Assembly (NCBI RefSeq): GCF_004010195.1
Contig: NC_057718.1
Span: forward strand, 8,793,181 to 8,842,570
Direction: 5' to 3'
Source: Chiloscyllium plagiosum
Lineage: Eukaryota
Length of the DNA stretch: 49,390 bases
The notes under the pieces were generated by a model that did no database searches, was not told where the DNA came from, and saw only the letters and a list, made by a program, of their open reading frames with translations. Each line of letters begins with the position of its first letter. The first letter of the stretch is position 1. Below, piece after piece: positions 9,643 through 48,424 of this stretch. Made by a program: the position numbers and the translations under genes.

Positions 9643-10960
9643 TGTGGCGCTGGAAAAGCACAGCTGGTGAGGCAGCATCCGAGGAGTAGGAGAGTCAATG
9701 TTTCGAGCATAAGCCCTTCATCAGGAATGTGAGAGAAAGGGGAGCCCAAGGAGGCTGAGAGACAAATGGGAGGGGGTTGGGTCTGGGGAAAGGTAGCTGT
9801 GTGAGTATGATAGGTAAATGAAGGTGGGATATAATGGTGATAGGTCGGAGAGGAGGGTGGAGCAGTTCATAGTAAGGAAGATAAACAGATAGGACAGTTC
9901 AAGGGAGCGGTGCTAAGTTGGCAAGTTGGATCGGGGAAATGTTGGGGGGAGGGGAGATGAGGAAAATGGTGAAATCAACATTGATTCCATGTGGTTGGAG
10001 GGTCCCAAGGCGGTACATGAGGTATTCTTCCTCCAGGCATCGGGTGGATAGAATTTGGCGGTGGAGGAGGCCAAGGACTTGCATGACCTTAGTGGAATGG
10101 GAGGGGGAGTTGAAGTGTTTGGCCACAGGGCAATGGGGTTGATTGGAGTGTGCGGCCCAGAGATGTTCTCTGAAACATTCCACAAGTTGGCCTTCTGTCT
10201 CCCCAACGTAGAGGAGATCACATCGAGAGCAACAGACACAGTGGATGAGGTGTTTGGATGTGCAGGAAAATCTCTGCCGGATGTGGAAAGATTCTTTGGG
10301 ACCTCGGATGGAGGTGAGGGGTGAGGTGTAGGTGCAGGTTTTACACCCCTTGTGGTAACAAGGGAAGGTGCTGGGAGTGGAGGATGGGTTGGTGGGGGGC
10401 ATGGAACTAACAAGGGAGTCGCGGAGAGAATGGAGTCTGTGGAACACAGATGTGACAGGGAGGCAAATATATCATTGGTGGTGGGGTCTGACTGTGGGTG
10501 GCAGGAGTGGCAGATGATGATGTATTGTGTCTGTAAGTTGGTGGGGTGGACGTTGAGGGTGGGAGGGTGGTTCCGTCTTGTTGCAATTGGAGAGGTGGGG
10601 CTCAAGGGCAGAGGTGCGGGAAGTGGAGGATATGCATTGTTGACCATGTGGGAGGGGAAACTGCTGTCCTTGAAGTAGGAGGCCATCTGGGATGTTCTGG
10701 AGTGGAATTGGACCTCCTGGGAGCAGTTGCAGCGGAGGCAGAGGAATTGGGAGTAAGGGATAGCGTTTTTACAGGAGTGGTAACGGGAGGAGGTGTGGTC
10801 CAGGTAGCTGTTGGAGTTGGTGGGTTTGAAGTAGAGGTCTGTGTTAAGTTGGTCACTGGAAATGGAGATGGAAAGGTCCAGGAAGGGGAGGGAGGTATCC
10901 GGGATGGTACAGCTGAACTTGAGGTCAGGGTGGAAGGTGTTCATGGAGTAGATGAATTGG
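9643..10960 (-). mobile_element. Penelope-like element arm: RT C-terminus, GIY-YIG endonuclease and terminal repeat
   Basis: ORF 9913-10992 PFLDLSI..TDLYFKPTNSNSYLDHTSS..KNAIPYSQFL; ORF 9899-10447 CKTC..FSCTSKHLIHCVCCSRCDLLYVGET..L...FREH..PVAKHFN..E...YRLGTLQPHGIN, the PLE GIY-YIG pattern; frameshifted. Confidence 0.9.
9695..9728 (-). ncRNA. Minimal type I hammerhead ribozyme motif (PLE-associated)
   Basis: Minus strand reads attc-CTGATGA-a-GGGC-ttat-GCTC-GAAA-cattga; core boxes intact, stem III altered. Confidence 0.7.
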
Positions 10961-11893
10961 ATACAATGCATCATCCTCACAATTTCCAACATTCATGAAC
11001 AGACCCCACCACCAGGGATATATTTCCCTCCCAGCCTTATCTGCTTTCCGCAGAGATCATTTCCTCTGTGATTCCCTCGTTAAGTTCATGTCCCCCACCA
11101 ACCTACCCTCCACTCCCAGCACCTTCTCTTCTCACCACAAGAAGTATAAAATTGACACCCATTAAACCCCCTCATCCCAATCCAAGGCCCTAAAGCATCC
11201 TTCCACATGTAGAAGAGATTTTCCTACACATCCAAGCACCTCATCTACTGTGTCTGTAGCTCTTGATGTGGTCTCCACTACATTGGGGAGACAGGATGCC
11301 AACTTGTGGTACATTTCAGAGAACATCTCCGGGCCACATACCCCAATCAACCCCATCGCCCTATGGCTGAACACTTCAATTCCCCCTCCCACTCCACCAA
11401 GGACATGCAAGTCCTGAACCTGCTCCACCGCCAAATTCTAGCCATCTGACGCTTGGAGAAAGAACACCTCACATTCCACCTTGGGACCCTCCAACTACAC
11501 AGGATTAATGTTGATTTCACCAGTTTTCTGATCTCTCCTCTCCTGACCTTATCCCAGATCCAATCCCCCAACTCAGCACCTCCCTCTTGACCTGTCCTAT
11601 CTGCCCATCTTCCTTTCCACCTATCTGCTCCACCCTCCTCTCCAACCTATCACCTTCACTTCCACCTTCATCCACCTATTGCACTCTCAGCTACCTTCCC
11701 CCCAGCCCCAACCCCCCTCCTATTTATCTTTCCGGACCCTTGCACCCATCTGCCCACCTCACATTCCTGATGAAGAGCTTATGCTCGAAACGGCAACTCT
11801 CCTGCGACTCGGATGATGCCTGACCAGCTGTGCTTTTCCAGCACCACACTTATTGACTCTGAACTCCAGCATCTGCAGTTCTCTCTTTCTCCT
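10961..11893 (+). mobile_element. Penelope-like element, inverted second arm (GIY-YIG region plus terminal repeat)
   Basis: Reverse complement of ~9643-10530; ORFs 11162-11434(-) and 11347-11571(-) mirror 10055-10324(+) and 9918-10142(+). Confidence 0.88.
11763..11796 (+). ncRNA. Minimal type I hammerhead ribozyme motif (PLE-associated)
   Basis: attc-CTGATGA-a-GAGC-ttat-GCTC-GAAA-cggcaa; perfect 4-bp stem II. Confidence 0.7.
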
Positions 11894-12361
11894 AAGTGGT
11901 TGGTTGAGGTGTTGCCATAGAGAATGAACCAGGGAAGTACTGCCTGCATGCACCCCCTCCCATCCACCACTATCACGCTTTTGTTTAACTAATGCTGCTT
12001 TCGCAGAGGTAAAGTCCATGTGTATGAATATCAACACCTTTCAACAAGGACAAATGGGCCACATTGTGAGGAAGACTGTCATCTCAAATTAGTTGTTTAT
12101 GCAATTCCTGACACATTCTGGGTTGGTCAGCAACTGATGTCCAACTGGAGAATCCATTAAATAGTACCTTTCATAGCCTCAGAATTGGGGATGATAAAGG
12201 AGCAGGAGGAATTGGAGAGCACTGAAATTCCTAACAAGCAAATAGATGACCAATAGAGGTTGAAGAGAAATTGAGTGATAACACATTGACTTTGAGGCAA
12301 TGATACAGAGATTATTCTAAAGTACTTTACAGTCAATTCTGTACTTTTGTGGCCTTGTTGC

Positions 12362-12567
12362 TCTGGATGTAGGTTTGCTCACTGAGCTGGAAAGTTCATT
12401 TTCAGACGTTTTGTCACCATGCTAGGTAACATACTATGCTTCGTCCGGAGGCTCACTGAAGATGCTACCTAGTATGGTGACAAAACTTCTGAAATTGAAC
12501 CTTCCAGCTCAGCGAGCAAACCTGCATCCAGAACCTCAACCTGAGCTACAAATCTTCTCAAAACTCA
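12362..12567. mobile_element. Short palindromic PLE-type terminal-repeat insertion (family 3) with hammerhead-like motif
   Basis: ~70-bp inverted arms 12362-12432 and 12462-12532; direct repeat CCTTGTTGCTCTG at 12353-12365 and 12568-12580; CTGAAGA-t-GCTACC-tagtat-GGTGAC-aaaac at 12456-12486. Confidence 0.7.
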
Positions 12568-12659
12568 CCTTGTTGCTCTGTTAGGGAACACAGCAACAAA
12601 TTAACACCTGGTAAGATCCAATAAACAGCACTCTCTAAATTTAAATAATGCTGATTTTG

Positions 12660-12822
12660 CTTTGTTCACCTCCTGTACAGTGAAACTTTGTGTGCCTTGC
12701 TCTGTCTAAGCACCCTATGATCGCTATGTCTTTGTTTGCTATGAGCTGCCTACACTGCTCACAAAACAACACTTTTCACTGTACGTTGGTACATGTGACT
12801 GCAACAAAATCAAAAATCAAAT
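12660..12822 (+). mobile_element. Rex1/Babar 3' tail fragment
   Basis: 'ctgctcacaaaacaacacttttcactgtacgttggtacatgtgac...aaatcaaatc' matches 17880-18038. Confidence 0.75.
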
Positions 12823-12948
12823 CTGATGAAGGGCTTTTGCCCAAAACATCAATTTTCCTGTTCCTTGGATGCTGCCTGACCAGCTGTGCTTTTCCAGCAC
12901 CACTCTGATCTTGACTCTAACCTCCAGTATCTGCAGTACCCACTTCTG
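12823..12948 (+). mobile_element. PLE terminal repeat family 1 with decayed hammerhead motif
   Basis: CTGATGA-a-GGGC-tttt-GCCC-aaaac followed by 'gatgctgcctgaccagctgtgcttttccagcaccac'. Confidence 0.8.
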
Positions 12949-14279
12949 CTGAGTTGGACCGAAGGGTCTGTTTCCGTGCTGTGCATCTCTATAACTCTGT
13001 GACTTTATGACCACCTCACTCCAGTGAAAACCATAACAAACTCAGTGGGACAAAGAATTTAGTACTGAAACAATAATAGGTGTACTGAGTGGCTGAGATG
13101 TAAAATGAGGTGTGTGCATTGATTGAAAAAATGTGTATTATTTCTGAGACATTCACTCATACTAATACAAGAACATCACGCAGATGGTGAAAGCATGTTC
13201 AACAGGTGATAAGTGGAATGTTGAGCATCTCAATAGTTCGGAACGTATTTTACTTCAGAGAACATTTCAGCCAGCTGTTCCTGAAATGGCTGTTAATGCA
13301 CAAAGGTTAATCAAAAATCCATTTTGCTCTTTGCTATGAGATAGACCCTTGTAGGGGGAACCTTTGGTCTCTGGAGTGAAGCCAGCTGGAGAAACAATAG
13401 TTGACTTTGTGGATGGGATGTGAAAAACGATTTTTCCAACGAGACACATAGTCATCATTTGTCCTGAGCTAAGATAAAACATTCCTGTTGAAACTATCCT
13501 TAAAATAGCTACATTTTCTGCTGTTGGAGCATGTCCCATTACTTCTGCCTTTCTGACGCCATCCATTACTTGTTGCAAATTGCCTGATTGCCAGTATTAA
13601 CTCATATTGATATAATGTTGGCCACCTTTCTGCAAAAACAACATTTGTTTTCAGTGTGCATTCAGAGAACAAAGGACCTATGGCTCATTGAATCTCATCT
13701 CGACAGAATAGTGATCCGACTGTGTTTTCGGTGCAGCCTTTGTAATCCAGCTTGATTTATTTCAGGACTGATACCAATAAATTTACACTTCTTAAAAGTA
13801 TTAAGGAATGTGGAGATAGTGCAGAAATTGGTATTGAAGTAGAGGATCAGCCATGATTTCATGGAAGAGCTCAGAACGCTAAATGGTCCACGTCTGCTTG
13901 TCTTCCCTATGTTCCCTGCTCTCTCCTGAAGCATGGTTCCTCATTGAGGCACTGAAGTGTCACCCACATTGGTGGGGTTCAAGGAGAGCATGGCCTTGGG
14001 TCCACAAGAGCATTAGGAAGAGGATGAGACCACTCAGCCCCACCAACCTGTTCTGTCATTAAATCGGATAGTGTATGATCTCCACCGCATCATTTTCCCG
14101 CTTTTGCTCCCTACCACTTGACACTCATATCCGTCATAGTAATCTATCATTCTCACCCTTGTAAGTTCCATAGCCTTTTGGGAGAGATAATCCCAAATTC
14201 CCACGCTCTTTATGATCTCAGGATATCCTAAAGCACTTTACAAGTTATTTTCTTTTCAGTGTCAGCATCGTTATGGAAT

Positions 14280-14885
14280 CATAGAATCTTACAAAGAATA
14301 AACAAAGACCAAAGAAAGTTACAGCACAGGAACAGGCCCTTCGGCCCTCCAAGCCTGCGCTGATCCAGATACTCTATCTAAACCTGTCGCCTATTTTCTA
14401 AGGATCTGTATCCCTCAGCTCCCTGCTCATTCATGTACCTGATCAGGTACATCTTAAGTTGTGCTATCATGCCTGCCTCTACCATCTTCACTGGCAACGT
14501 GTTCCAGGTACCCATCACCCTGCGTGTAAAGAATTTTCCACACATATTTCCCTTAAACATAGGCAAAGTTTTTTCCCTGGGATCGGGGAGTCCAGAACTA
14601 GAGGGCATAGGTTTAGGGTGAGAGGGGAAAGATAAAGAAGATACGTAAGGGGCAACTTTTTCACGCAGAGGGTGGTACGTGCATGGAATGAGCTGCCAGA
14701 GGAAATGGTGGAGCCTGGTACAATTGCAACATTTAAGAGGCATTTGGATGAGTATATGAATAGGAAGGGTTTGGAGGGATATGGGCCGGGTGCTGGCAGG
14801 TGGGACTAGATTGAGCTGGGGTATCTGGTCGGCATGGACAGGTTGGACCGAAGGGTCTGTTTCCATGCTGTACATCTCTATGACT
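14280..14885. mobile_element. Two CR1 3' fragments joined back to back (minus ~14280-14558, plus ~14559-14885)
   Basis: Minus part FKGNMCGKFFTRRVMGTWNTLP; plus part 'ggcaactttttcacgcagagggtggtacgtgcatggaatgagctgcc' ending in the ctctatgact tail. Confidence 0.8.
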
Positions 14886-14899
14886 ATAACTGCAGAGCA

Positions 14900-15850
14900 A
14901 ACATGGATTTACCTTCAAATAGCTGTTCCCAATCCACATTCCCCAGCTCCTGCTGAATTTTGCTATTGTTGGCCTTTCTCCAGTTTAGCACTTTTCCTTT
15001 AGGACCACTCTTGTCTTTGTCCGTGAATATTCTAAAACTTACGGAATTTTGATCTCTATTCCCAAAGTAATCCCCTACTGAAATTTCAAGCGCCTGACCC
15101 GGTCTCATTCCCCAACACCAAGTCCAGTATGGTCCCTTCCTGAGTTGGACTATTCATATTCTGCCTAGAAAACCCTCCTTGATGCTCCTTACAAATTCTG
15201 CTCCATCTAAACCTCTAACACTAAGTAAATCCAAGTCAATGTTGGGAAAATTAAAATCTCCTATCACCACCACCCTGTTGCTCCTAATCTTTCCATAATC
15301 TGTTTACATAGTTGTACCTCTATCTCATGCTCACTGTTGGGAGATCTGTAGTACAGCCCCAACATTGTTACCGTACCCTTCCTATTTCTGAGTTCTGTCC
15401 ACAATGCCTCGTTGGCTCAAGTCCTCCATTGTGCCCTCCTTCAGCACAGCTGTGATATCCTCTCTGACCAGTAATGCAACTCCTCCACCCCTTTTACGTC
15501 CCTCTCTATCCTGCCAGAAGCATTGATATCCTGGGATATTTAGTTGCCAATCATGCCCTTCCCTTGACCAAGTCTCAGTAATAGCAATAACGTCACACTC
15601 CCAGGTACTAATCCAAGCCCTAAGTTAATCTGCCTTACCTACACTTCTCACAGTAAAACAAATACACCACAGACCACCAGTCCCTTTGTATTCGTCATCT
15701 GCTCTCTGCCTACTCTTCCACTTAGTCATGCTGACTTCATTATCTAATTCCTTACAGGCTTTAGTTACTACCTCCTTCCTGCCCACTAATGCCCTCATTT
15801 GGTTCCCATCCTCCTGCCATATCAGTTTAAGCCCTCCCCAAAAGCATTAG
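14900..15850 (-). mobile_element. CR1 ORF2 N-terminal (APE endonuclease) fragment
   Basis: Minus strand encodes LRAWISTWECDVIAITETW..GHDWQLNIPGY, a YYR-P-type motif and a GDFNFPNIDL motif. Confidence 0.8.
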
Positions 15851-16028
15851 CATTCATTCATTCGTTCATTCACTGTACAGTGGGAAAGTAGTACATTCAG
15901 TCAATCGAGTCCACACTCACCCTCCAAAGGGTATCCCACCCAGACCCATCCCCCTACCCTATCCCTATAACCTTGCACTTGCCATGGCTAATCCAGCTTG
16001 CCTACACATCCCCAGAACTACAGGCAAT

Positions 16029-16338
16029 TTAGATTTTAGATGTTTTAGATTACTTACAGTGTGGAAACAGGCCCTTTGGCCCAACAAGTCCACACCGACC
16101 CGCAACCCACCCAGACCCATTCCCATACATCTAACACTACGGGCAATTTAGTGTGGCCAATTCACCTAACCTGCACATTTTTAGACTGTGGGAGGAAACC
16201 GGAGCACCCGGAGGAAACCCACGCAGACACGGCGAGAATGTGCAAACTCCGCACAGTCAGTCGCCTGAGGCGGGAATTGAATCCGGGTCTCTGGCACTGT
16301 GAGGCAGCAGTGCTAACCACTGTGCCACCGTGCCACCC
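16029..16338 (-). mobile_element. HE1-type V-SINE (tRNA-derived), nested in an older HE1-like copy (~15880-16390)
   Basis: GGGTGGCACGGTGGCACAGTGGTTAGCACTGCTGCCTCACAG..GGATTCAATTCCC head, V-domain GGAGTTTGCACATTCTC..GGGTTTCCTCCGGGTGCTCCGGTTTCCTCCCACAGTC, CR1-type tail. Confidence 0.9.
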
Positions 16339-17285: not shown

Positions 17286-17324
17286 GTCACATTTTCTCTC
17301 CAATCTAATTGAGTTACAGATTTA

Positions 17325-17515: not shown

Positions 17516-17659
17516 CTGATCACTGTAGTTTAGCTTGTAAACATCCTGCATGAAAAGAAGAGCACTGCTCCTTTAAGTGGTCCACCAGGCAGAGTCACAC
17601 ATTAAGAATACCACTTGATAAGAAATGCAAACATATGTCATCAATAAAATGCATAGTCC

Positions 17660-18038: not shown

Positions 18039-18288
18039 GAAGTGACAAACTGTTGCTTCATATTGCTCTAACTCAGCACACACTTAGTATGAAGAACATC
18101 ACTGCAGTATGCAATTCCTTATGCACCATTATTGCTCATCTGGCAGATGAGGATAATTTCCAAAATGAACATTATTTTGAAGAAATAATGATGTTTAGTT
18201 GCACAGTTCCTCACTGGACATCAGAAAGCACCAAGCTGCTTAACCCTGAAATCATTGCTGTGGCTTGGGATACACAGCAGCCAAATGG

Positions 18289-18620
18289 GAAGGCACCAGC
18301 CTGTGGCATTACTGCTTGACTGTTAATCCAGAGACCCAGGGGCTGGAGATCTGGGTTCGAATCCTGTCATAGCAGAGGGTGGAATTTGAATTCAATAAAA
18401 ATCTGGAATTAAGGGTCTAATGATGACAATGAAGCCATTGCTGATTGCTGTAAAAGTGCATCCAGTTCAGTGGAAACTGCCATCCTTACCTGGTCTGGGC
18501 TGCATGTAACTCCAGAACCACAGCAATGCAGTTGATTCCTAATTGCTTTCATGGTAATTAAAGATGGGCAATAAATGCTGGCCTTGCCAGTGACATGTTG
18601 AACCCATGAATGAATTTTTT
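18289..18620 (+). mobile_element. tRNA-derived SINE family B
   Basis: B-box GGTTCGAATCC at ~18354; 3' end 'gatgggcaataaatgctggcc...atgaatgaat'. Confidence 0.75.
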
Positions 18621-20157: not shown

Positions 20158-20245
20158 TGAAGGGCTTTTGCCCGAAACATCGATTCTCCTGCTCCTCAGA
20201 TGCTCCCTGACCTGCTGTGCTTTTCCAGCACCACTCTAATCTAGA
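20158..20245 (+). mobile_element. PLE terminal repeat family 1 fragment
   Basis: tgaa-GGGC-tttt-GCCC-GAAA-catcgattctcctgctcctcagatgct; 5' core box truncated. Confidence 0.8.
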
Positions 20246-20374
20246 ACAAAATCTAGTCTGACATTCTAGCGAGGTGCTGAGAGAGTGCTGCACTATTCGA
20301 GTTGCTATCTTTCACGTGAAAGTTGAAATCAGGATGGTGTTTGCCATTTCAGATGAATGGAAAAGGTCCCATCG

Positions 20375-20799: not shown

Positions 20800-20920
20800 A
20801 AAATCCCAAAGGATGCTGGAAATTAAAAACAAATTCAGAAATCTGCTGGAAAAGCTCAGCAGGTCTGGCAGGGGAGAGAACAAAGTGAACCTTTTGGGTC
20901 CAGTGGCCCTTCCTCAGCAC
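20800..20920 (-). mobile_element. PLE terminal repeat family 2 with hammerhead-like motif
   Basis: Minus strand CTGAGGA-a-GGGCC-actg-GACCC-aaaa at 20892-20917. Confidence 0.6.
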
Positions 20921-20937
20921 TGAGTGATATCACAGTG

Positions 20938-21785: not shown

Positions 21786-22000
21786 GGTAAAAGGTAAAGT
21801 TACCACAGGCCTACTCTCTCATTAGAAAGAGAGAGAAAGAGAGGTCACTGGTGGAGAGTTTATCCTGTAGTCACCATGCCTCATGCAAATGGTGAGATTG
21901 AGAAGATGAGACCTTCACAATGACCTCAGTCAGTACAGGAATTGAACCTGCACTGTTGGCACCACAAACCAACTGTCCAGCCAACTCAGCCAAATGACCC
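21786..22000 (-). mobile_element. tRNA-derived SINE family D with ACCTTT-type tail
   Basis: Minus strand 'gggtcatttggctgagttgg..gcaggttcaattcctg' head; ends 'aactttaccttttacc'. Confidence 0.55.
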
Positions 22001-23341: not shown

Positions 23342-24003
23342 TAGATTAGATTAGATTAGATTAGATTCGCTACAGTGTGGAAACAGGCCCTTTGGTCCAA
23401 CTAGTCTACATTGACCCTTCGTAGAGTAACCCACCCAGACCCATTCCCCATATCTACCCCTGACTAATGCACCTAACTCTATGGGCAATTTAGCATAGGA
23501 GAAAGTGAGGACTGCAGATGCTGGAGTTGAAAAATGTGGTGCTGGAAAAACACAGCAGGCCAGGCAGCATCCGAGGAGCAGGAGAATCGATGCTTCAGGC
23601 ATAAGTCCTTCTTCAGGAATGAGGCTGGTGTGCCAAGCGGGCTGAGATAAAGGGTAGGGGGGAGGGGCGCTTGGAATACGATAGGTGGAAGGAGGTGCAG
23701 GGCAGAGGAGATGATCTGGGGGGTGCAGTGAGAGAGGGACTCACTGAGATCCTTATAGACGGAGGAGGAGAGCTTCTTCAAGATAGGCATCCTTTTCAAG
23801 AGGATTCGCAATTTAGCATGACCAATTCACCTTACCTGTACATCTTTGTACTGTGGGAGGAAACCAGAGCACCAGGAGGAAACCCACATAGACACAGGGA
23901 GAATGTGCAAACTCCACACAGACAGTCGCCCCAAGGCTGGAATTGAACCTGGGTCCCTGGTGCCGTGAGGCAGCAGTGCTAACCACTGAGCCACCGTGCT
24001 GCC
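23342..24003 (-). mobile_element. HE1-type V-SINE interrupted by a PLE fragment
   Basis: (TTAGA)n tail at the left, head at ~24000; flanked by AAGGAT on both sides. Confidence 0.9.
23497..23807 (-). mobile_element. PLE 3'-terminal fragment (family 1 variant)
   Basis: Flanked by 12-bp direct repeat GCAATTTAGCAT (23485-23496, 23808-23819); minus-strand CTGAAGA-a-ggac-ttat-gcct-gaag degenerate hammerhead. Confidence 0.85.
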
Positions 24004-30701: not shown

Positions 30702-30867
30702 CAGGAGCATTTCAGACATCAGCCCTTCATCAGGAATTTTCCAATGAAGAGCTTATGCCCGAAACATTGATTCTCCTGCTCCTCGGATGCTGCCTGACTG
30801 GCTGTGCTTTTCCAGTACCACTCTCCGGACTCTGATCTCCGGCATTTGCAGTCCTCACTTTCTCCTA
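30702..30867. mobile_element. Inverted pair of PLE family 1 terminal repeats
   Basis: Minus motif 30710-30733 and plus motif 30741-30764; near-direct repeat CTA(T/C)ATAAAT at 30692-30701 and 30865-30874. Confidence 0.75.
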
Positions 30868-31119
30868 CATAAATGCAGCTCAGTCTTTCATGTTTCTATT
30901 ATTGTGTTTCAGAACGTTCTGAAAAATGATCACTGGACTTGAAACAGTAACTCTGCTTTCTCTGTACAGGTGCTGCCAGAACTGCTGAGTTTCTCCAGCA
31001 TTTTCCATTTTCCATCTGTTATTAATGGCCAGAAGTCACGTACAAAGTGTAGACTTCTTGGTACAGCTACCTCAGTAATAGCACCAACAATGTGGTTTGA
31101 TCTATATACTCCCATTCAC

Positions 31120-31759: not shown

Positions 31760-33080
31760 AACGTAGAAAATAGGAGCAGGAATAGGCCATTCAGCCCCTC
31801 AAGTCTGCTCTGCATTCAATATGGTCATCCAATTCAATGCCTTGTTCCTTCTTTCTCCCTATAATCCTATGATCTTTTAGCCCTAAGGATGATATCTAAC
31901 TCCTTCTAGGATTCATTCAATGTTTGGCAACAATTGCACAGAGAATCCCACAGACTCCTCACTCTCTGGGAGGCGTGGGGGAAGACATTTCTGTTCATCT
32001 CAGTCCTAAATGGCCTACCTCAAGCCCTTATACTATGACTCCTGTCTCTGGACCATCAGGAGCATATGTCTACCCTGTCCAGTCCTGTTAGAGTTTTATA
32101 GGTTTCCCCTCTTCCATTCTTTCACACTCCCTTGAATATAGAACATAGAACATTACAGCACAGTACAGGCCCTTCGGCCCTCGATGTTGCACCGATCTGT
32201 GGAACCAATCTGAAGCCCATCTATCCTACACTATTCCATTTTGTGTATATGTTTATCCAATGACCATTTAAATGCCCTTAAACTTGGCAAGGTCACTACT
32301 GTTGCAGGCAGTGTGTTCCATGCCCCTACTACTCTCTGAGTAAAGAAATTACTTCATCATTCCTGATGAAGGGCTTATGCCCAAAACATCAATGCTCCTG
32401 CTCCTCAGATGCTGTCTGACCTGCTGTGCTTTTCCAGCACCACACTCTCAACAACTACCTCTGACTTCTGTCCTACATCTATCACCCCTCAATTCATAGC
32501 TGTGTCCCCTCGTGCTAGCTATCACCATCCGAGGAAAAAGGCTCTCACTGTCCACCCTATCTAACTCTTTGATTATCTTATATGTCTCAATTAAGTCACC
32601 TCTCAACCTTCTTCTCTCCAATGAAAACAGCCTCAAATCCCTCAGCCTTTCCTCATAAGACCATCCCTTCATACCAGGCAACATCCTGGTAAATCTCTTT
32701 GTATCCCTTTCCAAAGCTTCCACATCCTTCCTATAATGCAGTGACCAGAACTGTATGCAATGCTCCAAGTGCAGCCGCACCAGAGTTTTGTATAGGTGCA
32801 GCATGACCTCGTGGCTCTGAAACTCAATAGTTCAAACAGATCTGGCGCTTCTTCATCCATCAGTCCTGCCATCCCAGGGATCAGTCTGACCAAATTTTGT
32901 TGCACTCCCTCCCTAGCCAGAACATCTTTTCTCAGATTTGGAAACCAAAACTGCACACAATACACTGGGTGTGGTCTCCCCAAAGCCGTGTCTAATTGCT
33001 GCAAAACCGTTGTGCTCCTTTACTCCAATCCTCTTGCTGTGAAGGCTGATACACTATTTGTTTTCTTTGGCATGTGTTGC
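31760..33080 (-). mobile_element. Nested CR1 3' fragments (younger copy ~32140-32825 inside an older one), with a PLE fragment at ~32352-32450
   Basis: ORFs 32448-32804 and 32669-33004 (LVRLHLEHC..RFTRMLPG); CTGATGA-a-GGGC-ttat-GCCC-aaaa at 32363-32386. Confidence 0.85.
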
Positions 33081-38240: not shown

Positions 38241-38244
38241 GCAG

Positions 38245-38367
38245 GGAGAAAGGGAGGACTGAAGATGCTGGAAATCAGAGTGGAGAGTGTGGCGCTGGAA
38301 AAACACAGCAGGTCAGGCAGCATCCGAGGGGCAGGAGAATCAACGTTCGGGCATAAGCCCTTCATCT
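38245..38367 (-). mobile_element. PLE terminal repeat family 1
   Basis: Minus strand cagatga-a-GGGC-ttat-GCCC-gaa-cgttga; 'gctggaaaaacacagcaggtcaggcagcatccgagg'. Confidence 0.8.
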
Positions 38368-38369
38368 GG

Positions 38370-41300
38370 TTTGTTACCCACGTGCTAGCGAGGCAACCAA
38401 TAGGCAGAGAGAGGAGTTGAACATGTGACTATAGGGATGGTGCAGGAGGGAGGGTTTGACATACCTGGATAATTGGGGCTCATTCTGGGGTAACTAGAAC
38501 CTCTATAAACAAGATGGTCTACACCTGAACCAGAGGGGAACCAATATCCTGGAGACAGAATTTGTTCATGCTCTTCAGTGGGTGGGGGCGGGGTTCAACT
38601 AATTCAGTAGGAGGATGAGAACCTGAATTGTAGTTCCGGTGTCTGGGAGGGTGAGAGTAGTGAGGTCAGAAATCAGGATTCATGATCGCAAGAGTGCACT
38701 GGCAAGCAGGAAGGTGGTTTGAAATGCATCTACTTCAACGCCAGGAGCATCCAGAATACTGTCGGTGAACTTGCAGCATGGGTTGGTACCTGGGACTTCG
38801 ATGTTGTGGCCATTTTGGAGACATGGAAAGAGCAGCGACAGGAATGGTTGTTGCAGGAACTGGGATGTAGATATTTAGTAAGAACAGGGAAGGTGGCAAA
38901 AGGAGGTGGGAGTGCAGGGTAGTGGATTGTTAATCAAGGGCAATATGACGGTGGCAGAAAGGACATTTGAGGACTCGTCTACTGCGGTAGTATGGGCTGA
39001 CGTTAGAAAAAGGAAAGGAGAGGTCACCCTGTTGGGAGTTTTCTATAGGCCTCCGAATAGTTCTAGGGATGTAGAGGAAGGCATAGGAAAGATAATTGCT
39101 GTGGAAAAGGATATGGAAGATATAGACTGTAGGGAAATAGATGGTGACATCTTGAAAAATGTCCATATTACAGAGAAGGAACTGCTGGGATGTTTTGAAA
39201 TGCATTCAGGTGGATTAATCCCCAGGACGTGATCAGGTGTACCCTAGAACTCTGTAGGAAGCTAGAGAGGTGATTGCTGGGCCTCTTGCTGAGATATTTG
39301 TATCATCGATAGTCACAGGTGAGGTGCCGGAAGACTGGAGGTTGGCTAACGTGGTGCCACTGTTTAAGAAGGGCGGTAAGGACAAGCCAGGGAACTATAG
39401 ACCAGTGAGCCTGACGTCAGTGGTGGGCAAGCTGTTGGAGGGAATCCTGAGGGACAGGATGTACATGTATTTGGAAAAGCAAAGACTGATTCAGGATAGT
39501 CAACATGGTTTTGTGCATGGGAAATCATGTCTCACAAACTTGATTGAGTTTTTGAAAGAAGTAACAATGAAGATTGATGAGGCAGTGCGAAAGATGTGAT
39601 CTATATGGACTTCAGTACGGCATTTGCCAAGGTTCCCCAAGGCTAGATCTCATGGAATACAGCGAGAACTAGCCATTTGGATACAGAACTGGCTCAAAGG
39701 TAGAAGACAGAAAATGGTGGTGGAGGGTTGTTTTTCAGACTGGAGGCCTGTGACCAGTGGAGTGCCACAAGGATCGGTGCTGGGTCCAATACTTTTCATC
39801 ATTTATATAAATGATTTGGATGTGAACATAGGAGGTATAGTTAATAAATTTGCAGATAACACCAAAATTGGAGGTGTAGTGGACAGCGACAAAGGTTACC
39901 TCAGATTACAACAAGATCTTGATCAGATGGGCCAATGGGCTGAGAAGTGGCAGATGGAGTTTAATTCAGATAAATGTGAGGTGCTGCATTTTGAAAAGCA
40001 AATCTTAGCACAATTTATACACTTAATGGTAAAGTCCTAAGGAGTGTTGCTGAACAAAGAGACCTTGGAGTGCAGGTTCATAGCTCTTTTAAAGTGGAGT
40101 CACAGGTAGATAGGATAGTGAAGAAGGCGTTTGGTATGCTTCCCTTTATTGGTCAGAGCATTAAGTACAGGAGTTGGGAGGTCATGTTGCAATGTACAGG
40201 ACATTGGTTAGGCCATTGTTGGAATATTGCATGCAATTCTGGTCTCCTTCCAATCAGAAGGATGTTGTGAAACTTGAAAGGGTTCAGAGAAGATTTACAA
40301 GGATGTTGCCAGGGCTGGAGGATCTGTGCTACAGGGAGAAGCTGAACAGGCTGGGGCTGTTTTCCCTGGAGCGTCGGAGGCTAATGGGTGACCTTATAGA
40401 GGTTTACAAAATTATGAGGGGCATGGATAGGGTAAATAGGCAAAGTCTTTTACCTGGGTTGGGGGAGTCTAGAACTAGACGGCATAAGTTTAGGGTGAGA
40501 GGGGAAAGATGTAAAAGAGACCTGAGGGGCAACGTTTTCACACAGAGGGTGGTACGTGTATGGAAGGAGCTGCCAGAGGAAGTGGTGGAGGCTGGTACAA
40601 TTGCAACATTTAAAAGGCATCTGGATGGATATATGAATAGGAAGGTTTTAGAGGAAAATGGGCCAAGTGTCGGCAATTGGGATTAGATTAGGTTGGGACA
40701 TCTGATTGGCATGGACGAGTTGTACCAAAGGGTCTGTTCCCATGCTGTACATCTCTATGATTCTATGATGTTATTATTCTGGATCGAATTGAGAGTAACA
40801 GGGTAGTTGTTATGGGATCTTTAACTTGGTAAATATTGACTGGAAATACTATAGTTCAAGTACGCCAGATGGGTCAGTTTTTGTCCAACATGTGCAGGAA
40901 AATGTCCTGACACAGTATGTAGACAGGCCAACAAGGGGCAAGGCCACATTGGATTTGTACTGGGTAATGAACCTGGCAAGGTGTTAGATTTAGAGGTAGG
41001 TGTGCACTTTGGTGATAGTTTACTTTAGCAATGGAAAGGGATAGGTATATACCACAGGGCAGGAGTTTGAGCTGAGGGAAAGGCAATTATGATGCAATTG
41101 GGCAAGATTTAGGATGCATAGGATGAGGAAGGAAACTGCAGGGGATGGGCATAATAGAAATGTGGAGCTCATTCAGGGAGCAGCTACTGCAGATCCTTGA
41201 TAAGTGTGTACCTGTCAGGCAGGAAGGAAGTGGTTGAGTGAGGGAGCCATGGTTCACTAAGGAAATTGAATCTCTTGTCAAGAGGAAGAAGATAGCTTAT

Positions 41301-42512
41301 GTTAGGATGAGATGTGAAGGTTCAGTCAGGGCGCGTGAGAGTTACAAGCTGGCCTGGAAAGACCTAAAGGGAGAGCTAAGAAGAGCCAGGAGGGGACATG
41401 AGAAGTCAGTAGTAGATAGGATCAAGGAAAACCCTAAGGCTTTCTACAGGTATATCAGGAATAAAAGAATGACTAGATTAAGATTAGGGCCAATCAAGGA
41501 CAGTAGTGGAAAGTTGTGCATGGAGTCCAAGGAGATAGTAGAAGCACTAAATGGGAATGATTTGTCAGTATTCACACTGGAAAAAGACAACGTTGTCGAA
41601 GAGATGCTGAGGTACAGTCTACTAGGCTAGATGGGATTGAGGTTCCCAAGGAGGAGGTGTTAGCATTTCTGGAAAGTATAAAAATAGCTAAGTCCCCTAT
41701 GCCAGATGGGATTTATCCTAGGATTCTCTGGGAAGCCAGAGAGGCAATTGCAGAGCCTTTGGCTTTGATCTTTATGTCATCATTGTCTATAGGAATAGTG
41801 CCAGAAGACTGGAGGATAGCAAATGTGGTTCCCTTGTTCAAGAAGGAGAGTCAAGACAATCCTGGTAATTATAGACCAGTGAGCTTAATTCGGTTATGGG
41901 TAAAGTGTTGGAAAAGGTTATAAGAGATAGGATTTATAATGATTTATAATCATTATGATCATCTAGAAAGGAATACATTGATTAGGGATAGTCAACATGG
42001 TTTTGTGAAGGATAGATCATGCCTCACAAACCTTATTGAGTTCTTTAAGAAGGTAACCAAACAGGTAGAAGAGGGTAAAGCGGTTGATGTGGTGTATATG
42101 GATTTCAGTAAGGGGTTTGATAAGGTTCCCCACAATAGGCTATTGCACAAAATACAGAGGCGTGGGATTGAGGGTGGTTTAGTGGTTTGGATCAGAAATT
42201 GGCTAGCTGAAAGATGACAGAGGGTGGTGGTTGATGGAAAATGTTCATCCTGGATTTCAGTTACTAGAGTTGTACTGCAAGGATCAGTTTTGGGGCCACT
42301 GCTGTTTGTCATTTTTATAAATGACCTGGATGAGGGCATAGAGAATGAGTTAGTAAATTTGCGGATGACACTAAGGTCAGTTGAGTTGTGGATAGTGCTG
42401 AAGGATGTTGCAGGTTACAGAGGGACAGGGATAAGCTGCAGAGCTGGGCTGAGAGATGGCAAATGGAGTTTAATGCAGAAAAGTGTGAGGTGATTCACTT
42501 TGGAAGGAGCAA
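38370..42512 (+). mobile_element. Long decayed CR1 LINE (ORF1 esterase tail, APE endonuclease, RT) split by a younger CR1
   Basis: DGLHLNQRGTNIL at ~38513; KCIYFNARSI..DVVAILETW (38719), GVFYRPPNS (38906); resumes at ~40772; [55 protein letters not shown]. Confidence 0.92.
39097..40770 (+). mobile_element. Younger 5'-truncated CR1/HER1 LINE (RT to 3' tail)
   Basis: ORFs 39270-39599, 39624-40040 (GVPQGSVLGP..KFADNTKIGG), 40174-40686; 'ctctatgattctatga' tail. Confidence 0.95.
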
Positions 42513-42784
42513 TATTTTGGGTGTAACTCTTCTTCAGGAGAGGCACATTTACTCAGGCCTTGATGGGTTTGTGCTGTGGGGAGATGCTCAGGTTGGAATT
42601 CTAGAAACAGAAGGCTGATAAGGCTAAGGGGATCTTTCATACTTCAGTAATTACGTTGATGTTAAATATTGTTTTGATGCCTTCTCTGTGATATTAATCC
42701 ACAGGAGCTGGGTGTGGCGTTGTTTGGCAGCGTGAGGGTAGATGGAGGCCCCTTTACGACTTCTGAACGTGAGCACAGAAATCA

Positions 42785-43070
42785 AGGTACTCCAGTGAGG
42801 GCTTGCTGCCGTGTTGGAGGTGTCAGCTTTCCAATGCACCGTTAAACAATGGCCCTGCCTGTTCTCTCAGGTGAACATAGACAATCCTGCAGTCTGATAC
42901 ACCAAAGAAGATCAGAGGAGCTCTCCCCTTTGTTGTGGACAACACTCTTCCTTCAATCAATGCCACAAAACCTGACGATCTGGTCATTGTCACATCGCTG
43001 TCTGTGGGATCTTGCTGTGTGCAAATTTCCTTCTGCATTTCCTACATTACCACAGCAACCTGAATTCAAG
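42785..43070 (+). mobile_element. Deu-domain SINE fragment
   Basis: 'ttggaggtgtcagctttcc..gttaaacaatggccctgcctgttctctcaggtgaac' and tail 'gatctggtcattgtcacatcgctgtctgtgggatcttgctgtgtgcaaatt'. Confidence 0.65.
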
Positions 43071-43952
43071 ACTTATTGCTGTAGAGCACTTTTATTGTGT
43101 GGTGACCATAAAAGGCACTATATAAATGCTCTGGTGTTATGGAGCGATCCACATAGGCTCTACTTAATCCAGGTAACAGTAAAGATTTTAGTTGATACAC
43201 TTCAGTTTAATAAATGGATTCAGACAGAGAAGGATTTAACTTCAATCTTTTCACCTGCAGATCAGAGCTCCACAAAATGCACAAGGCATGAACAGAAAGT
43301 TAAGCAAAAGAGATTCACGAACTAAAGGGACTGATAGGGCTCAGCAACCTTTCAATCAGGTTTTGAACATTACACACCACATTGATGTGGTGTATGAGAT
43401 GGGAACTGCTGGTTAAAGGATTAAAACAGTGTAGTCAAAAGGTACAGAAAGAGGCCATGTGGTCCAAAATGTCAGATCCTCCCAAACCTAACTATGGAGA
43501 CCCACATTGACCAGTCTGTCTGTAATGGTTACTTCATCTTCACTTCATTGCAACTCTCCGACTTCTCCCCTTACCCCAGCTCCTGGCCCACTCTAATATT
43601 GTACCAGGGCCATTTCTTCTTTAATCCCAGCAGCAAACCCATCTACAAAGGGTTCATTTATTCCCAAATCCTCTTCATCCTCTTTAATCCTCTTCCACCG
43701 GCTCTGTGCGTCACATAAGCTACTAAGCTTCCAGCCCTGCACTGACTCCAATTATTCATCAAGCTTAGGTCATCTTTATTGAATATCAGATTCATCAGTC
43801 TCCTGCAGCAGTGGTTCTAATTCCACCATATCCTCTCCAATTCAATCATGAGACAGAAGCCATACTCTTGAGATGTAGTTTTTTTCCAGAGTTTCTTTTT
43901 GTTAATTCATTTCAGCTTTGCATTGATCGGAACAAGGTGACATAACTTATTG

Positions 43953-44205
43953 GTATTCATTCACAGGATGTGGATGTCACTGACTTGACCTGTATTTATT
44001 ACCCTTCCCTCATTGCCCATTGGGATTAGGACTCAACTACATTGCTGTGGGTCTGGAGTCACATGTAGATCAGACCAGGTAAGGATGGCAGATTTCCTTC
44101 CCTAAAGGACATGAGTGAACCAGATAGGTTTTCCCAACGATTGACAGCGGTTTCATGGTCATCATTAGAATCTTAATTCCAAATGTTTATTGAATTCAAA
44201 TTCAA
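43953..44205 (-). mobile_element. tRNA-derived SINE family B, head missing
   Basis: Matches 28057-28300. Confidence 0.8.
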
Positions 44206-44899
44206 ATGCTGACGAGACAATCCCTTCATAGTGGGAATCATCCCTTAGTGAACCTTCTAATTAGTTATCGTGATGTTTACAATGTACCTGGGACATCTTT
44301 ACTGGACCAATCTGCAAATGTGCTGTATGGACCTTGACAAACTTAAAACAATGCTGGTGGGTGAGGCAAGATGGCTGGTGCCAATGGTTAGAAAAGGCAG
44401 AGGCCATTCGGCCCTTCAAGCCCAGTTGCTAGGAATACCACCATTTCAATTCCTCACCTCCCCTTTTCTCTATATGAGTTATTCTTCGATGGATTTCTTC
44501 ATCATTGTACTTTCCTTTACCCACTTCAATCTCACAAGTGTTAATTGGTCATCATTGTTGTTTAAATCCATTTTGCTTTGTCTTACTCAGACTCCAGTAA
44601 TTGCCTTTCCCACGTCATATGTTAATATTTTGAATCAGAGTCATGGTAAATTCTGAATGAAATATAAATCCTGAACCTCAGTGTGTGCAGTCAGTGTGGT
44701 GTCAGTGCACCACCTAGTGACTTTCAGCATCAGTACAATCACAGTCAGCATCTTGAACATCATAAGAGTGAACAGTTCAGACAACAGACTTGGCTTTCTG
44801 CTCATTGTTTGCCAATTGTCAAAGGAACAGAACTTAATTGAGGGATTTAGAGCATCTAATGGATACCTTGCTGTGATTTATTATATTTTCTAATCAAGC

Positions 44900-45215
44900 T
44901 GTTGCTACACGCCTGTACAGCAGGTAGGACTTGGACCTACACCTCCAAGATTAGAGGTAGGGACACTGCCAATGCACCAAGACATCCCTCAAATTGTAGA
45001 TATTTCTGTTCAGACGGATTATGATGCACCTATGGAGCAAGTAGGATTTGAACCCAGGCCTCAGGTAGTGATACTATCACTGCACCACAAGAGTAGTGCT
45101 AATTGTAGGTATTTTTAAAGCAACTTGTCAGAAATGTTATCACACACGACTGAAGCAAGTGGGACTTGAACTCAAGTGTCCTGGCTCACGGTGTGGGACA
45201 CTACCACTACACCAG
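44900..45215 (-). repeat. Three tandem diverged tRNA-like SINE heads (family C), period ~110-125 bp
   Basis: Repeated 'agca(g/a)gt(a/g)gga(c/t)ttg(a/g)ac..g(g/t)ga(c/t)act..cactgcacca' with spacer 'aattgtag(a/g)tattt'. Confidence 0.6.
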
Positions 45216-45776
45216 AGATGTCCCAGATGGGCTTTAATCTAATGCAGGGCTTCAGATTTACACAGCTTTCAGGATCTCAGGGTATCTCAGAGTACTTTGA
45301 TGGAGGATTTCTTTTGAAGTGTAGCCGCTGTTTTAAGGTAGGGGAAATGACAGTCAATTTACACACAGAAGAATCACACTGAAGGCAACATGATAATGAC
45401 CAGATTGTGTTTATAGTGAACTTGGTCAGAACTCTGCTGTGATGTGTGGTGAGGCTCAACACTCTCTTAAATAGATTCCTTTCTGGTCAACCAGGCAAGA
45501 TATTCTGACATGTTATGACACACTCTGAAGCAGGTGAGACTGGAACCATGTTGTTTGTTCACTGTCACTGGGTCAAAATCCTGGAATTCCTTCCCTAACA
45601 GCATTGTGGGTAACTGCAGCAGTTCAAGAAGGCAGCTCACCAACACCTTCTCAAGGGGCAACTAGGGACGGACAATAAAAACCACCAAGCTGTAATGGTA
45701 TGTTGTGAATGGCATTAAACAGGAAATCTGAGATGTATGCAGTAAAGGAATATTTGTAATTATGGGTGACTTTAAT

Positions 45777-46070
45777 AGTCATAGAGTCATACAGCATGAA
45801 AACAGACTCTTCAGTCCAACCAGTCCATGCCGACCATAACCCCAAACTAAACTAGTCCCACCTGCCTGCTCCTGGCCCATATCCTCCAAACCCTTTCCTA
45901 TTCACATACTTATCCAAATGTCTTTTAAACGTTGTAACTGTACCACATCCATCACTTCCTCAAAATGTTCATTCCACACATGAACTACCTTCTGTGTAAA
46001 TAATTTTCCCCTTATGTCTTTTTTAAATCTCTCTTCTCTCACATTAAAATTGTGCACTCTAGTCTTGAAA
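45777..46070 (-). mobile_element. CR1/HER1 3' fragment nested in the older CR1
   Basis: 'agtcatagagtcatacagcatg' tail; ORF 45902-46105 ERFKKDIRGKLFTQKVVHVWN. Confidence 0.85.
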
Positions 46071-47771
46071 TCTGTACGTAGGTTGGGTGAAATCAAATTT
46101 GTCACAAAACGATAGAGAAGGAATTCCTAGATTGTATACAGAATGGATTTCTGGATCAATACTGTGAGGAACCAACTAGAGAACAGGTTATTTTAAACAG
46201 GGGATTATGTACTGAGCAAAGAGTAATTGGTGATTTGTTTGTGACAGACACCTTAGGAGTGAGTGACCATGATATGATACAAGTTTTCATGAAGGTGGGA
46301 AGTGGGGTAGCTAATTCTGAGATTAGGGTCCTGAATCTTAATAAGGGAAACTATAATGGTATAAGGCATGAATTGGTAATGATGGATTGGGAAATATTAT
46401 TGAACGCAAGAACAACGGATAGACAATTGCAAACATCCAGAGAGCAAATGGGTGAGCTACAAAAATTGTTTATTTCTGTCTGGCGCAAGAATACAAAGAG
46501 GACAGTGGTTAACCCATGGCTTATGAGGAAAGTTAAAGATTGCATTAGATGCAAAAAAGAGGCACACAGATTGGCAATAAAATAGAGCTAAGGATTGGTA
46601 ATTATTTAGAAATCAGCAAAAGGAGAACACAGGGATTGATTAGGAATGGGAAAATGAAGTATGAGAGTAAGCTTGGGAGGAGAACTAATTGTAAACATTT
46701 CCATAGGTATGCAAAGAGAACAAGGTTGGTGAAGGCTAATGTAGGACCCTCACAGTCAGAAACAGAGGGAATCTATAATGGGGAACAAAGGAATAGCTGA
46801 TGAACTAAGTGCACACTTCACTTCCCTTTTCACAAAAGAAAGAGACGAATAAGAGACGAATACCAGAAATGATGGGGAACACAGAGATTACTGAGAGGGA
46901 GGAACTGAAGAAAATTAGTATTGATGAAGAAATAGTATTGGCGAAATTGATTGGATTGAAGGCTGATGGATTCCCAGGTCCTGATAATCTACATCCCAGA
47001 GGATTTAAGGAAGTGGCTGTCGATGTCCTGGGCAAGATTTCATAGACCTGGACCAGTTCCTCTTGACTGGACGGGAGCTAATGTAACCTGTCTGTTTAAA
47101 AAGGGCATCAGAGAGAAAACAGGGAATCATAGACTAGTCCATTATCAAGGATTTTACAGCAGAGCAATTAGAAAATAGTGATAGAATCAGACACAGTCAG
47201 AATGGATTTATTAAAAGCTAAATCTTGGTTAACAAATCAACAGGAATTCTTCGAGGGTGTAACTAGTGGATCGGGAGTGTCAGTGGATGTGGTTTACTTG
47301 GACTTTCAAAAGGCCTTCGATATAGTCCCACATCAGAGATTAATGTGTCAAATTAAAGTGCATGGGTTTGGGGATAGATTGGTGAGATGAATAGAAAATT
47401 GGGTAGCAGACAGGAAATGAAGAGTAGGATTAATTAGATCTTTTTCTGAATCATAGGCATTGACTAGTGGGGTACCACAGGGATCAGTACCATGTCTCCA
47501 GCTATTCACATTATAGGTGTTAGAGGAGGGAACTAAATGTAATATCTCCAAGTTTACAGGTGACACAAAGCTGGATGGGAGAGTGAGCTGTGAGGAGGAT
47601 GCAGAGAGGTTGCACTGTGATTTGGACAGACTGAGGGAGTGGGAAAATGCATGGTGATGGAGCATAATGTGAGTAAATGTGAGATTACCCACTTTGGTAG
47701 CAACGGTAGGAAGGCAGATTATGATCTGAATGGCTGTAAATATAGAGGGAGGGAACTGTTCAATGAGATCT

Positions 47772-48063
47772 GGATGGCACAGTGGCACAGTGGTTAGCAC
47801 TGCTGCCTCACAGCGCCAGAGGCCCGGGTTCAATTCCCACGCACATTCTCCCTGTGACTGTGTGGGTTTCCTCCAGGTGCTCCGGTTTCCTCCCACAGTC
47901 CAAAGATGTGCAGGTCAGGTGAATTGGCCATGCTAAATTGCCCATAGTGTTAGGTGAAGGGATAAATGTAGGGGAATGGGTCTGGGTGGGTTGCATTTTG
48001 GTGGGTCAGTGTGGACTTGTTGGGCCGAAGGGCCTGCTTCCACACTGTAAGTAATCTAATCTA
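47772..48063 (+). mobile_element. HE1-type V-SINE
   Basis: GGCACAGTGGTTAGCACTGCTGCCTCACAGCGCCAGAGGCCCGGGTTCAATTCCC head, partial V-domain, GTAAGTAATCTAATCTA tail. Confidence 0.9.
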
Positions 48064-48199
48064 GGTGCCTCAGGCACTAGTCACTGAGACTCAGTGTGCA
48101 AGTGCAGTAGGAAGTGACGAAGGCAAGTGGCAGGTTGACCTTTATCAGGAGAGGATTCAAGTACAACAGCAGGGATGTCTTGCTGCAGTTATATAGGGT

Positions 48200-48424
48200 C
48201 GAAGAGTGTGGTGCTGGAAAAGCACAGCAGGTCAGGCAGCATCCAAGGAGCAGGAGAGTCAACCTTTCGGGCACACGCCATTCATCAGGAATTCATCAGT
48301 CCTGATGAAGGGCTTCTGCCTGAAACATAGACTCTCCTGCTCCTCAGGAGAGCTGACCTGCTGTGCTTTTCCAGCACCACACTCCTCAACTCTGATCTCC
48401 AGTAGCTGAAGTCCTCATTTTCTC
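48200..48424. mobile_element. Inverted pair of PLE family 1 terminal repeats, with TSD
   Basis: Arms ~48200-48290 and ~48300-48424; direct repeat CTGCA(G/A)TTATA(T/C)AGGGT at 48183-48199 and 48425-48441; CTGATGA-a-GGGC-ttct-GCCT-GAAA at 48302-48325. Confidence 0.85.

Follow-up and report, generated by a model that had tools for sequence, protein, structure and literature searches.

A repeat dispersed over a 49,390-nt stretch of the Chiloscyllium plagiosum genome (hereafter the window) is best read as the 3′-terminal module of endonuclease-bearing Penelope-like retrotransposons (Penelope-like elements, PLEs), a module that would begin with a minimal type-I hammerhead ribozyme (min-HHR). We give this joint reading a probability of about 0.82. 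Judged from its sequence, the repeated motif is a dimer-type minimal hammerhead of PLE tails, a kind already described: PLE-borne min-HHRs have been published for fishes, coelacanth, frogs and reptiles (PMC4209133), and the motif is very probably homologous with them. Cartilaginous fish thereby take a firm place among the animals with genomes full of minimal hammerheads carried by PLEs, on a scale about ten times the coelacanth and frog figures.

The window was scanned with the pattern CTGAWGANGRGCNNNNGCYCGAAA at up to two mismatches, with 100 dinucleotide-preserving shuffles as the control. This revealed nine matches against 0.01 expected, a number reached by none of the 100 shuffles (Table 1). 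The original prediction had listed about ten dispersed copies, and all 11 of its sites are real: nine are pattern matches, whereas the remaining two (~20158(+) and ~23592(-)) are the same repeat, recovered by BLAST and nhmmer profile search. The alignment of the 11 copies extends from about four bases ahead of CTGATGA to a shared end some 130 bases later, some copies stopping at about +85 to +95. The variants reported for the window were all seen again, including helix II GGGC/GCCC and GAGC/GCTC, the loops TTAT, TTTT and TTCT, and CATTGA, CATCGA, CGTTGA, CGGCAA and CATCAA after GAAA. The profile search of the window returned 12 module copies, adding two old degraded ones (3234-3360(-) and 20811-20925(-)) and leaving out a 28-nt inverted stub at 30710-30733. 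A strict descriptor, which demands two undamaged core boxes and no fewer than 4 bp in helix II, is passed by four window sites, compared to a shuffle mean of 0.04. As only these four pass and none of them keeps ACGU-C after GAA, the window copies are mostly damaged; the whole 30-nt motif is intact in 0 of the 12 module copies. The earlier statement that copies are mostly damaged is therefore right for the window. Genome-wide, intact copies are plentiful, the exact full 30-nt motif, with either N7, occurring in 79,576 copies.

Genome-wide counts refer to the 3.56-Gb assembly of 101,977 contigs. A 25-mer of the motif at up to one mismatch gave 41,351 + 40,999 (82,350) matches, with 0 in the control, and a 33-mer taken from the module outside its hammerhead gave 43,794 + 43,987 (87,781). 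Compared to the ~4,000-9,000 reported for coelacanth and Xenopus, the 79,576 intact motifs found here are far more numerous; the intact copies, rich in CpG and numbering in the tens of thousands, suggest recent activity.

Conservation and anatomy were examined in the window plus 63 loci (279.5 kb in total, including 16 kb of N), searched with the module profile. The pooled loci gave 139 profile matches, or 121 copies after dropping 18 duplicates from overlapping loci; the census-type figures given here come from this small sample, which was partly picked for containing a module copy. Of the 121 copies, 11 owed their selection to the hammerhead and do not enter the conservation figures, 36 were picked by means of the 33-mer, and 74 are unbiased for the motif (12 from the window, 25 incidental and 37 in loci bearing open reading frames (ORFs)). 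Module positions are counted from the C of CTGATGA.

The majority head of the main family (family 1) consists, from 5′ to 3′, of AUUC (helix I 5′ strand), CUGA(U/A)GA (core), a bulged A, GGGC-NNNN-GCCC (helix II with its loop), GAA, the self-complementary ACGU that replaces a helix III hairpin, the cleavage-site C and GA(U/A)U (helix I 3′ strand), the predicted cut lying directly after the C. Among the 74 unbiased copies, core box 1 (positions 1-4, 6 and 7) is 95.9% kept and box 2 (22-24) 98.5% kept, which makes them the best-kept parts of the unit and, as had been anticipated, better kept than the flank (50.9% at upstream positions -10..-5). Block 46-81 is kept at 92.1% and U16.1 at 98.5%; of 64 copies, 98.4% have the bulged A (A8). 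The most variable head positions are N7 (U 53%, A 42%) and loop II (74.6%), which are the ones a hammerhead leaves free. The six CpG positions are 80.9% kept, with T and A as the alternatives. After GAA, the majority in the 74 copies is C25 (83%), G26 (72%), T27 (98%), C28 (67%) and G29 (87%), the alternatives being the T or A of CpG decay. This majority bears out the CpG-decay reconstruction to GAAACGTCGA in copies not chosen by hammerhead, and the same letters stand verbatim in the 79,576 genomic motifs; the consensus thus carries GAAACGT(C/T/A), in the form GAA-ACGU-C.

Helix II pairing is kept across variants, as proposed at the outset. Genome-wide, GGGC/GCCC is found 33,722 times and GAGC/GCTC 1,214 times, the single changes occurring 1,276 and 1,209 times; from the two single changes only about 46 GAGC/GCTC doubles would be expected. 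Most of the doubles have a TTAT loop, and together they make up a separate lineage; the helix II swaps are lineage-level changes that represent few independent events. A second family (family 2; 10,053 exact genome copies, with 0 matches in the window at up to three mismatches) keeps the core and the bulged A, with GGAGC/GCUCC as helix II. After GAAA, 91 of 100 listed family 2 matches read GCTA, resulting in an AGCU palindrome with A as H17 at the cleavage position. Examples are L051:3434-3720 and L036:2812, where GUGUGCUUCC... follows the palindrome, and family 2 copies often form head-to-head pairs 40-120 nt apart. The C-G to G-C swap keeps the family 2 tetramer self-complementary, as the dimer model requires, and breaks three of the five pairs of a rival closed hairpin.

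The module consensus has the G10.1-C11.1 closing pair, together with A15.1-U16.1, a non-G H17 and a palindromic 15.2-16.2 (ACGU + C in family 1, AGCU + A in family 2). All four extra min-HHR hallmarks of Cervera and De la Pena 2014 (PMC4209133) are thus present. The motif also shares with metazoan PLE min-HHRs (PMC4209133) the type-I layout, the full core, the single unpaired nucleotide before helix II, the G10.1-C11.1 pair and the palindromic 15.1-16.1 stretch in place of a helix III hairpin, as well as the occurrence as many dispersed single motifs from truncated PLEs and as opposite-strand pairs. They differ in the helices: helix II has 4-5 bp here, compared to 6-8 bp in the min-HHRs of Schistosoma and Drosophila virilis, and helix I has 2-4 bp, compared to 4-5 bp in Schistosoma and 2 bp in D. 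virilis (PMC4209133). Altogether, the intact copies and the two covarying families provide natural material on what weak dimer-type ribozymes do for their elements, and the same material bears on how PLEs define both ends of the copied sequence.

Domain calls were made on a better copy elsewhere in the genome (locus L052), whose open frame spans 674 aa. RVT_1 reaches 31.0 bits against a cut-off of 29.6, whereas GIY-YIG scores 21.4 bits (E 3e-4), just under its cut-off of 22.6, so that the endonuclease call is borderline by the Pfam threshold. The ORF contains the strings YIDD and LLYIGETGR, in addition to a C-x4-C-xx-C stretch between the reverse transcriptase (RT) and the endonuclease. Its homologues number 1,945, some of them carrying PF01541; the best come from Chiloscyllium, Rhincodon and Stegostoma and are uncharacterised, and the endonuclease part has 141,629 first-look candidates in the genome. 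According to excerpts of Craig et al. 2021 (PMC8557442), a CX4CxxC-type linker marks the Neptune and Nematis clades of PLEs; the linker between RT and endonuclease thus suggests that the element is of Neptune type. Open frames of 600-893 aa were found in the readable parts of 14 ORF-bearing loci (L051-L064). In 11 of the 14, runs of N of 23 to 1,485 bases lie in or next to the element ORFs, so that any ORF length computed across such a run is not real. One of the 14 loci is unreadable downstream, and in 12 of the other 13 the module lies 160-360 nt past the ORF stop in the same orientation. The PLE context claimed for the window is likewise seen in its inverted pair (9642-11895), where remnants of an RT and GIY-YIG-like ORF precede the modules. 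Those of the first copy correspond to residues 319-663 of the L052 ORF and still show the CX4CxxC linker (C-YHKG-C-KT-C). The two copies join head to head near 10960-10981, with the motifs as the outer ends. Pfam recognized 0 families in four decayed window ORFs.

The unit is the 3′ end of a PLE, has discrete ends and inserts with target-site duplications (TSDs), often as inverted pairs. It runs from -4 to either of two 3′ ends, near +92/95 or near +126/131, with a conserved block (46-81) bearing an AC-rich stem-loop after the hammerhead. On the 5′ side the sequence common to the copies begins at -4, precisely where the helix I strand starts; an A occupies -4 in 25 of 29 solo copies and in 13 of 14 copies with an inverted partner, and -5 is mixed. 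The 3′ ends of the 121 copies form two clusters (~+89-104 and ~+127-133), and those defined by TSDs fall at +92/93 in three copies and at +126-134 in seven. The 5′ side could be judged in 92 of 100 copies and could not be in the other eight. Among the 92, 41 extend into the 3′ untranslated region (UTR) of the element, 15 have an inverted partner at most 80 nt away, and 36 start at the hammerhead head, a few of the latter being misfiled longer copies. TSDs of 9-18 nt flank 10 of the 36 solo candidates. For one solo unit (L002, 1487-1624), an empty-site form that skips 136 nt, with 16 letters shared, is found both among RNA reads and in the contigs of two further runs; it may represent paralogues rather than polymorphism, the flanks being a high-copy repeat.

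In the predicted fold of the whole unit, GAUGCUG (47-53) pairs with CAGCAUC (105-111), for instance at 11813-11819/11871-11877 of the window (positions estimated). In family 2, inspection by eye shows another complementary pair of strands in the corresponding places (CUGGUGUUG with CAACACCAG), a hint that a long-range stem enclosing the first 3′ end and using the tail may be conserved.

Inverted junctions with one truncated arm number 1,025 genome-wide. In 100 of them that were listed and tallied by eye, with approximate boundaries, the arm starts at 26 (14), 27-28 (7), 29 (7-9), 20-21 (10), 32-38 (23) and 39-45 (15), in addition to five ambiguous starts at 29-31. The starts are in excess at about 26-31 with a peak at 26, which lies 3 nt before the predicted cut; as the peak is at 26 and not at 29, the excess is no clean trace of cleavage. 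Internally truncated copies make up 21 of the 121, and the six of these that start at 27-34 are too few to judge. A few inverted-junction copies (e.g. one reading CCTGATGATTTTCC) have a precise internal deletion from about 6 to 29, with GA shared at the joint, which takes out helix II and the cleavage site.

The module resembles the 3′ end of PAc, a Poseidon element of Anolis carolinensis (Frangieh et al. 2024, PMC11167929). Reverse transcription of PAc starts internally at an AC-rich stem-loop ~110 nt past the hammerhead, from two start sites 30-40 nt apart that define an optional “tail”; both DNA strands are cut and extended, the cutting occurring at ATT. The two systems share a hammerhead followed by an AC-rich stem-loop, two alternative ends 30-40 nt apart and an ATT at the junction (here ATTC at -4..-1), and extension on both strands fits the inverted pairs found here. 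However, the PAc ORF starts inside the hammerhead, whereas the ATG of CTGATGA here opens just 17 codons, and the CX4CxxC linker points to the Neptune type, compared to the Poseidon type of PAc. Excerpts of Craig et al. 2021 (PMC8557442) also describe an inverted 5′-truncated copy among PLE insertions, and the module shares with such insertions the inverted 5′-truncated partner (15/92), the optional tail and the variable 5′ truncation.

By analogy with PAc, we propose that the PLE protein would bind the block after the hammerhead and that reverse transcription would begin internally at either of two sites, the stretch between them being the optional tail. Priming on both DNA strands would produce head-to-head copies, whereas severe 5′ truncation or short transcripts would leave solo modules of ~95 and ~130 nt. 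Dimer cleavage by min-HHRs is credited to Lunse, Weinberg and Breaker in the passage of PMC6765202 that cites them. Two module RNAs might likewise pair via ACGU, forming helix III in trans, and each cut after GUC, probably only with help from the element protein; old copies, such as those of the window, would be inert. For real self-cleavage by young copies in vivo, we put the chances at about even.

Several observations weigh against a functional hammerhead at the end of a PLE. Helix I is weak, as had been predicted: 51 of 77 copies have two consecutive pairs (C-G, U-A, then U.U, then A-U), 13 have at least four pairs and 13 have none or one. Only the GAAU subfamily has four Watson-Crick pairs (AUUC/GAAU), and the 40-nt minimum-energy fold of this subfamily is the hammerhead secondary structure (-7.2 kcal/mol). 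For the TTTT-loop subfamily, ViennaRNA predicts as the minimum of -12..+45 a closed hairpin (UGAUG/CGUCG, -11.4 kcal/mol). Tandem heads 120-150 nt apart number 88 genome-wide against 33,722 exact heads, so any dimer would mostly form between two RNAs and rarely in cis. The PAc hammerhead cut only with protein, its mutants left in vitro insertion unaffected, and no RNA-seq ends were found at its site (PMC11167929); in addition, PLEs without hammerheads proliferate well, according to excerpts of PMC8557442.

The motif was also left unscored by the Infernal check against Rfam that the original prediction had proposed. Rfam hammerhead families gave no window match at gathering score or at E<=10, and a 221-nt segment containing an intact copy likewise gave none at E<=10. 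The families concerned are Hammerhead_1, Hammerhead_3, Hammerhead_II, HH9 and HH10, with which the motif shares the core boxes. Unlike the Rfam hammerhead models, the min-HHR motif has neither a helix III hairpin nor a long helix I; we attribute the silence of Rfam to the limits of its models and do not hold it to disprove the motif. RNA ends were sought in one poly(A) single-cell run under the same species label, of which ~2% was read. The run gave 2,176 reads on the module, on both strands, 97% of which continue into other flanks, showing that many module copies are co-transcribed. The expected RNA ends did not appear: these reads form no pile-up at the predicted cut, in a library type poorly suited to show such ends.

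A further point concerns the ends of the element, which had been described as terminal repeats. The 3′-terminal half of this description stands, whereas a direct repeat upstream of the ORF does not. Self-comparison of the 14 ORF-bearing loci showed no direct pseudo-long terminal repeat (pseudo-LTR), and none of the 70 modules whose tail is complete has sequence in common with other copies beyond its end, in a sample that is small and poor in full-length copies; hence no direct pseudo-LTR is seen. Described PLE min-HHR elements, by contrast, have a direct flanking repeat. Locus L063 was considered as a direct pseudo-LTR and rejected, being a separate insertion plus an internally deleted copy.

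The most durable alternative is that the 5′ part of the module is kept as an RNA structure that binds protein or stops the RT, the hammerhead motif being a catalytically idle relic or a structural mimic. Conservation could serve protein binding rather than catalysis, given that block 46-81 comes close to the core in this respect (92.1% compared to 96-98.5%). The weak helix I, the absence of RNA-read ends at the cut site in that run and the dispensability of the PAc hammerhead for in vitro insertion (PMC11167929) fit the same explanation, as do the arms of inverted pairs, which in the hand tally often start at 20-21 and 26-27, like stops at a folded structure. Nevertheless, variation between lineages falls precisely on what a hammerhead leaves unconstrained (N7, loop II and the helix sequences), and the core, the bulged A, G10.1-C11.1 and the self-complementary 15.1-16.1 tetramer persist in two families with different helices, whereas a simple closed hairpin is not conserved between them. 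We therefore regard this alternative as improbable.

Far less probable still is that the ~130-nt solo units constitute an independent family like short interspersed nuclear elements (SINEs), with a promoter of its own (e.g. for RNA polymerase III) and a tail shared with PLEs, and independent of any hammerhead function. Such a family would account for the discrete TSD-flanked units of ~92 and ~126-130 nt and for the approximately one third of evaluable copies (36/92, some misfiled) that start at the head. However, no tRNA-, 5S- or 7SL-like match overlaps any module, and from -4 onwards the whole unit aligns co-linearly with the 3′ end of copies that bear an ORF, with no extra head sequence. A chance resemblance to the core boxes, for which one could cite the shortness of CUGANGA and GAAA and the lack of an Rfam score, can be practically dismissed given the four strict-descriptor sites against a shuffle mean of 0.04, the presence of all published extra hallmarks, the covarying helices of family 2 and a PLE context as published for other animals.

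Returning to the PLE-borne hammerhead module, a tentative extension, which we consider rather unlikely, is that the module is a self-contained minimal retrotransposition cassette, with the hammerhead marking its exact 5′ edge and PLEs acting as a source of SINE-like amplification. The initiator element has the consensus YYANWYY. In long copies TCATTCC around -4 fits it with the A at -4, a match noticed post hoc. If the extension held, transcripts from -4 would begin with the helix I strand and the 5′ edge of the unit would be a transcription start. A short transcript from the 3′-terminal module would then give a TSD-flanked solo unit without 3′ processing, because the RT starts internally at +95 or +130. 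Cleavage after GUC would strip the first 32 nt (the capped leader), leaving a minority of copies that start at 26-31. The scale could be perhaps 10^5 to 10^6 copies, as extrapolated from 12 per 49-kb window and 25 incidental copies per ~104 kb of flanks.

The module was also compared with retrozymes. Cervera and De la Pena 2020 (PMC7229834) deal with animal non-LTR retrozymes, and a preprint by Li, Clavereau and Pollet (2026) reports retrozymes derived from PLEs in vertebrates, one chondrichthyan among them. As far as these sources go, the module shares with non-LTR retrozymes the short non-autonomous type-I hammerhead unit related to PLE termini. However, retrozymes form head-to-tail tandem arrays giving circular RNAs, whereas the copies here are dispersed monomers with TSDs. 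Identity with a non-LTR retrozyme was rejected, given that 88 tandem head pairs and a few micro-arrays stand against 33,722 exact heads. These micro-arrays are head-to-tail, with a unit barely longer than the hammerhead head (C15:55272602-55273117, C39596:327-517 and C10:65700987-65701186; periods ~72, 45 and 47 nt), and look like retrozyme-like micro-satellites of the motif.

Sequencing runs under four organism labels contain module words (20 rows, 8 studies), a hint that the module is common to relatives. Penelope is among the repeats listed in the excerpted whale-shark genome paper. No literature on the shark module, its two families or its solo units was found in a search that did not cover Repbase and subscription papers.

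Table 1. Module copies and PLE remnants in the window. Motif matches are those to the pattern at up to two mismatches.
Feature	Position	Strand	Motif match	Details
Old module copy	3234..3360	-		hammerhead part past recognition; profile E 6e-20
3′ module of 5′-truncated PLE copy	9642..9731	-	9701-9724(-)	core at the match; short 3′ end ~+83; CATT after GAAA (decayed)
Body of first PLE copy	9732..10959	-		~200 nt of 3′ UTR, then ORF remnants: RT C-terminal part and GIY-YIG-like endonuclease
Body of second, inverted 5′-truncated PLE copy	10981..11759	+		ORF residues 472-664 plus 3′ UTR
3′ module of second copy, full tail	11760..11895	+	11767-11790(+)	core at the match; compensated helix II GAGC/GCTC; U16.1 lost, as CGGC follows GAAA
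Solo module (-4 to +131)	12818..12953	+	12823-12846(+)	TTTT loop; GCCCAAAA (CpG decay)
Module truncated at position 5 (5′ side)	20158..20246	+		short 3′ end (+93)
Old divergent module copy	20811..20925	-		CTGAGGA...; profile E 2e-10
Module with PLE 3′ UTR upstream	23495..23626	-		CTGAAGA variant (N7 = A); full tail
Inverted 28-nt stub of module head	30710..30733	-	30710-30733(-)	head to head with the 30738..30870 copy
Module, full tail	30738..30870	+	30741-30764(+)	core box 1 decayed to CCAATGA
Module beginning at ATTC (-4)	32355..32469	+	32363-32386(+)	GCCCAAAA
Module, full tail	38245..38378	-	38345-38368(-)	CAGATGA; GAAC (one base lost)
Left arm of head-to-head module pair	48183..48297	-	48265-48288(-)	
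Right arm of head-to-head module pair, full tail	48293..48428	+	48302-48325(+)	

The window also contains two tRNA-like matches, at 21927-21999(-) (32.1 bits, above the gathering score of 29) and at 18279-18366(+) (21.4 bits), which are probably heads of tRNA-derived SINEs unrelated to the module. In addition, a long near-perfect hairpin, UUUGCUCACUGAGCUGGAA ... UUCCAGCUCAGCGAGCAAA, lies at 12374-12520(+) with its arms ~80 nt apart. It has a weak mir-750 score (27.6 bits, compared to a gathering score of 60) and looks like the inverted ends of a small element.

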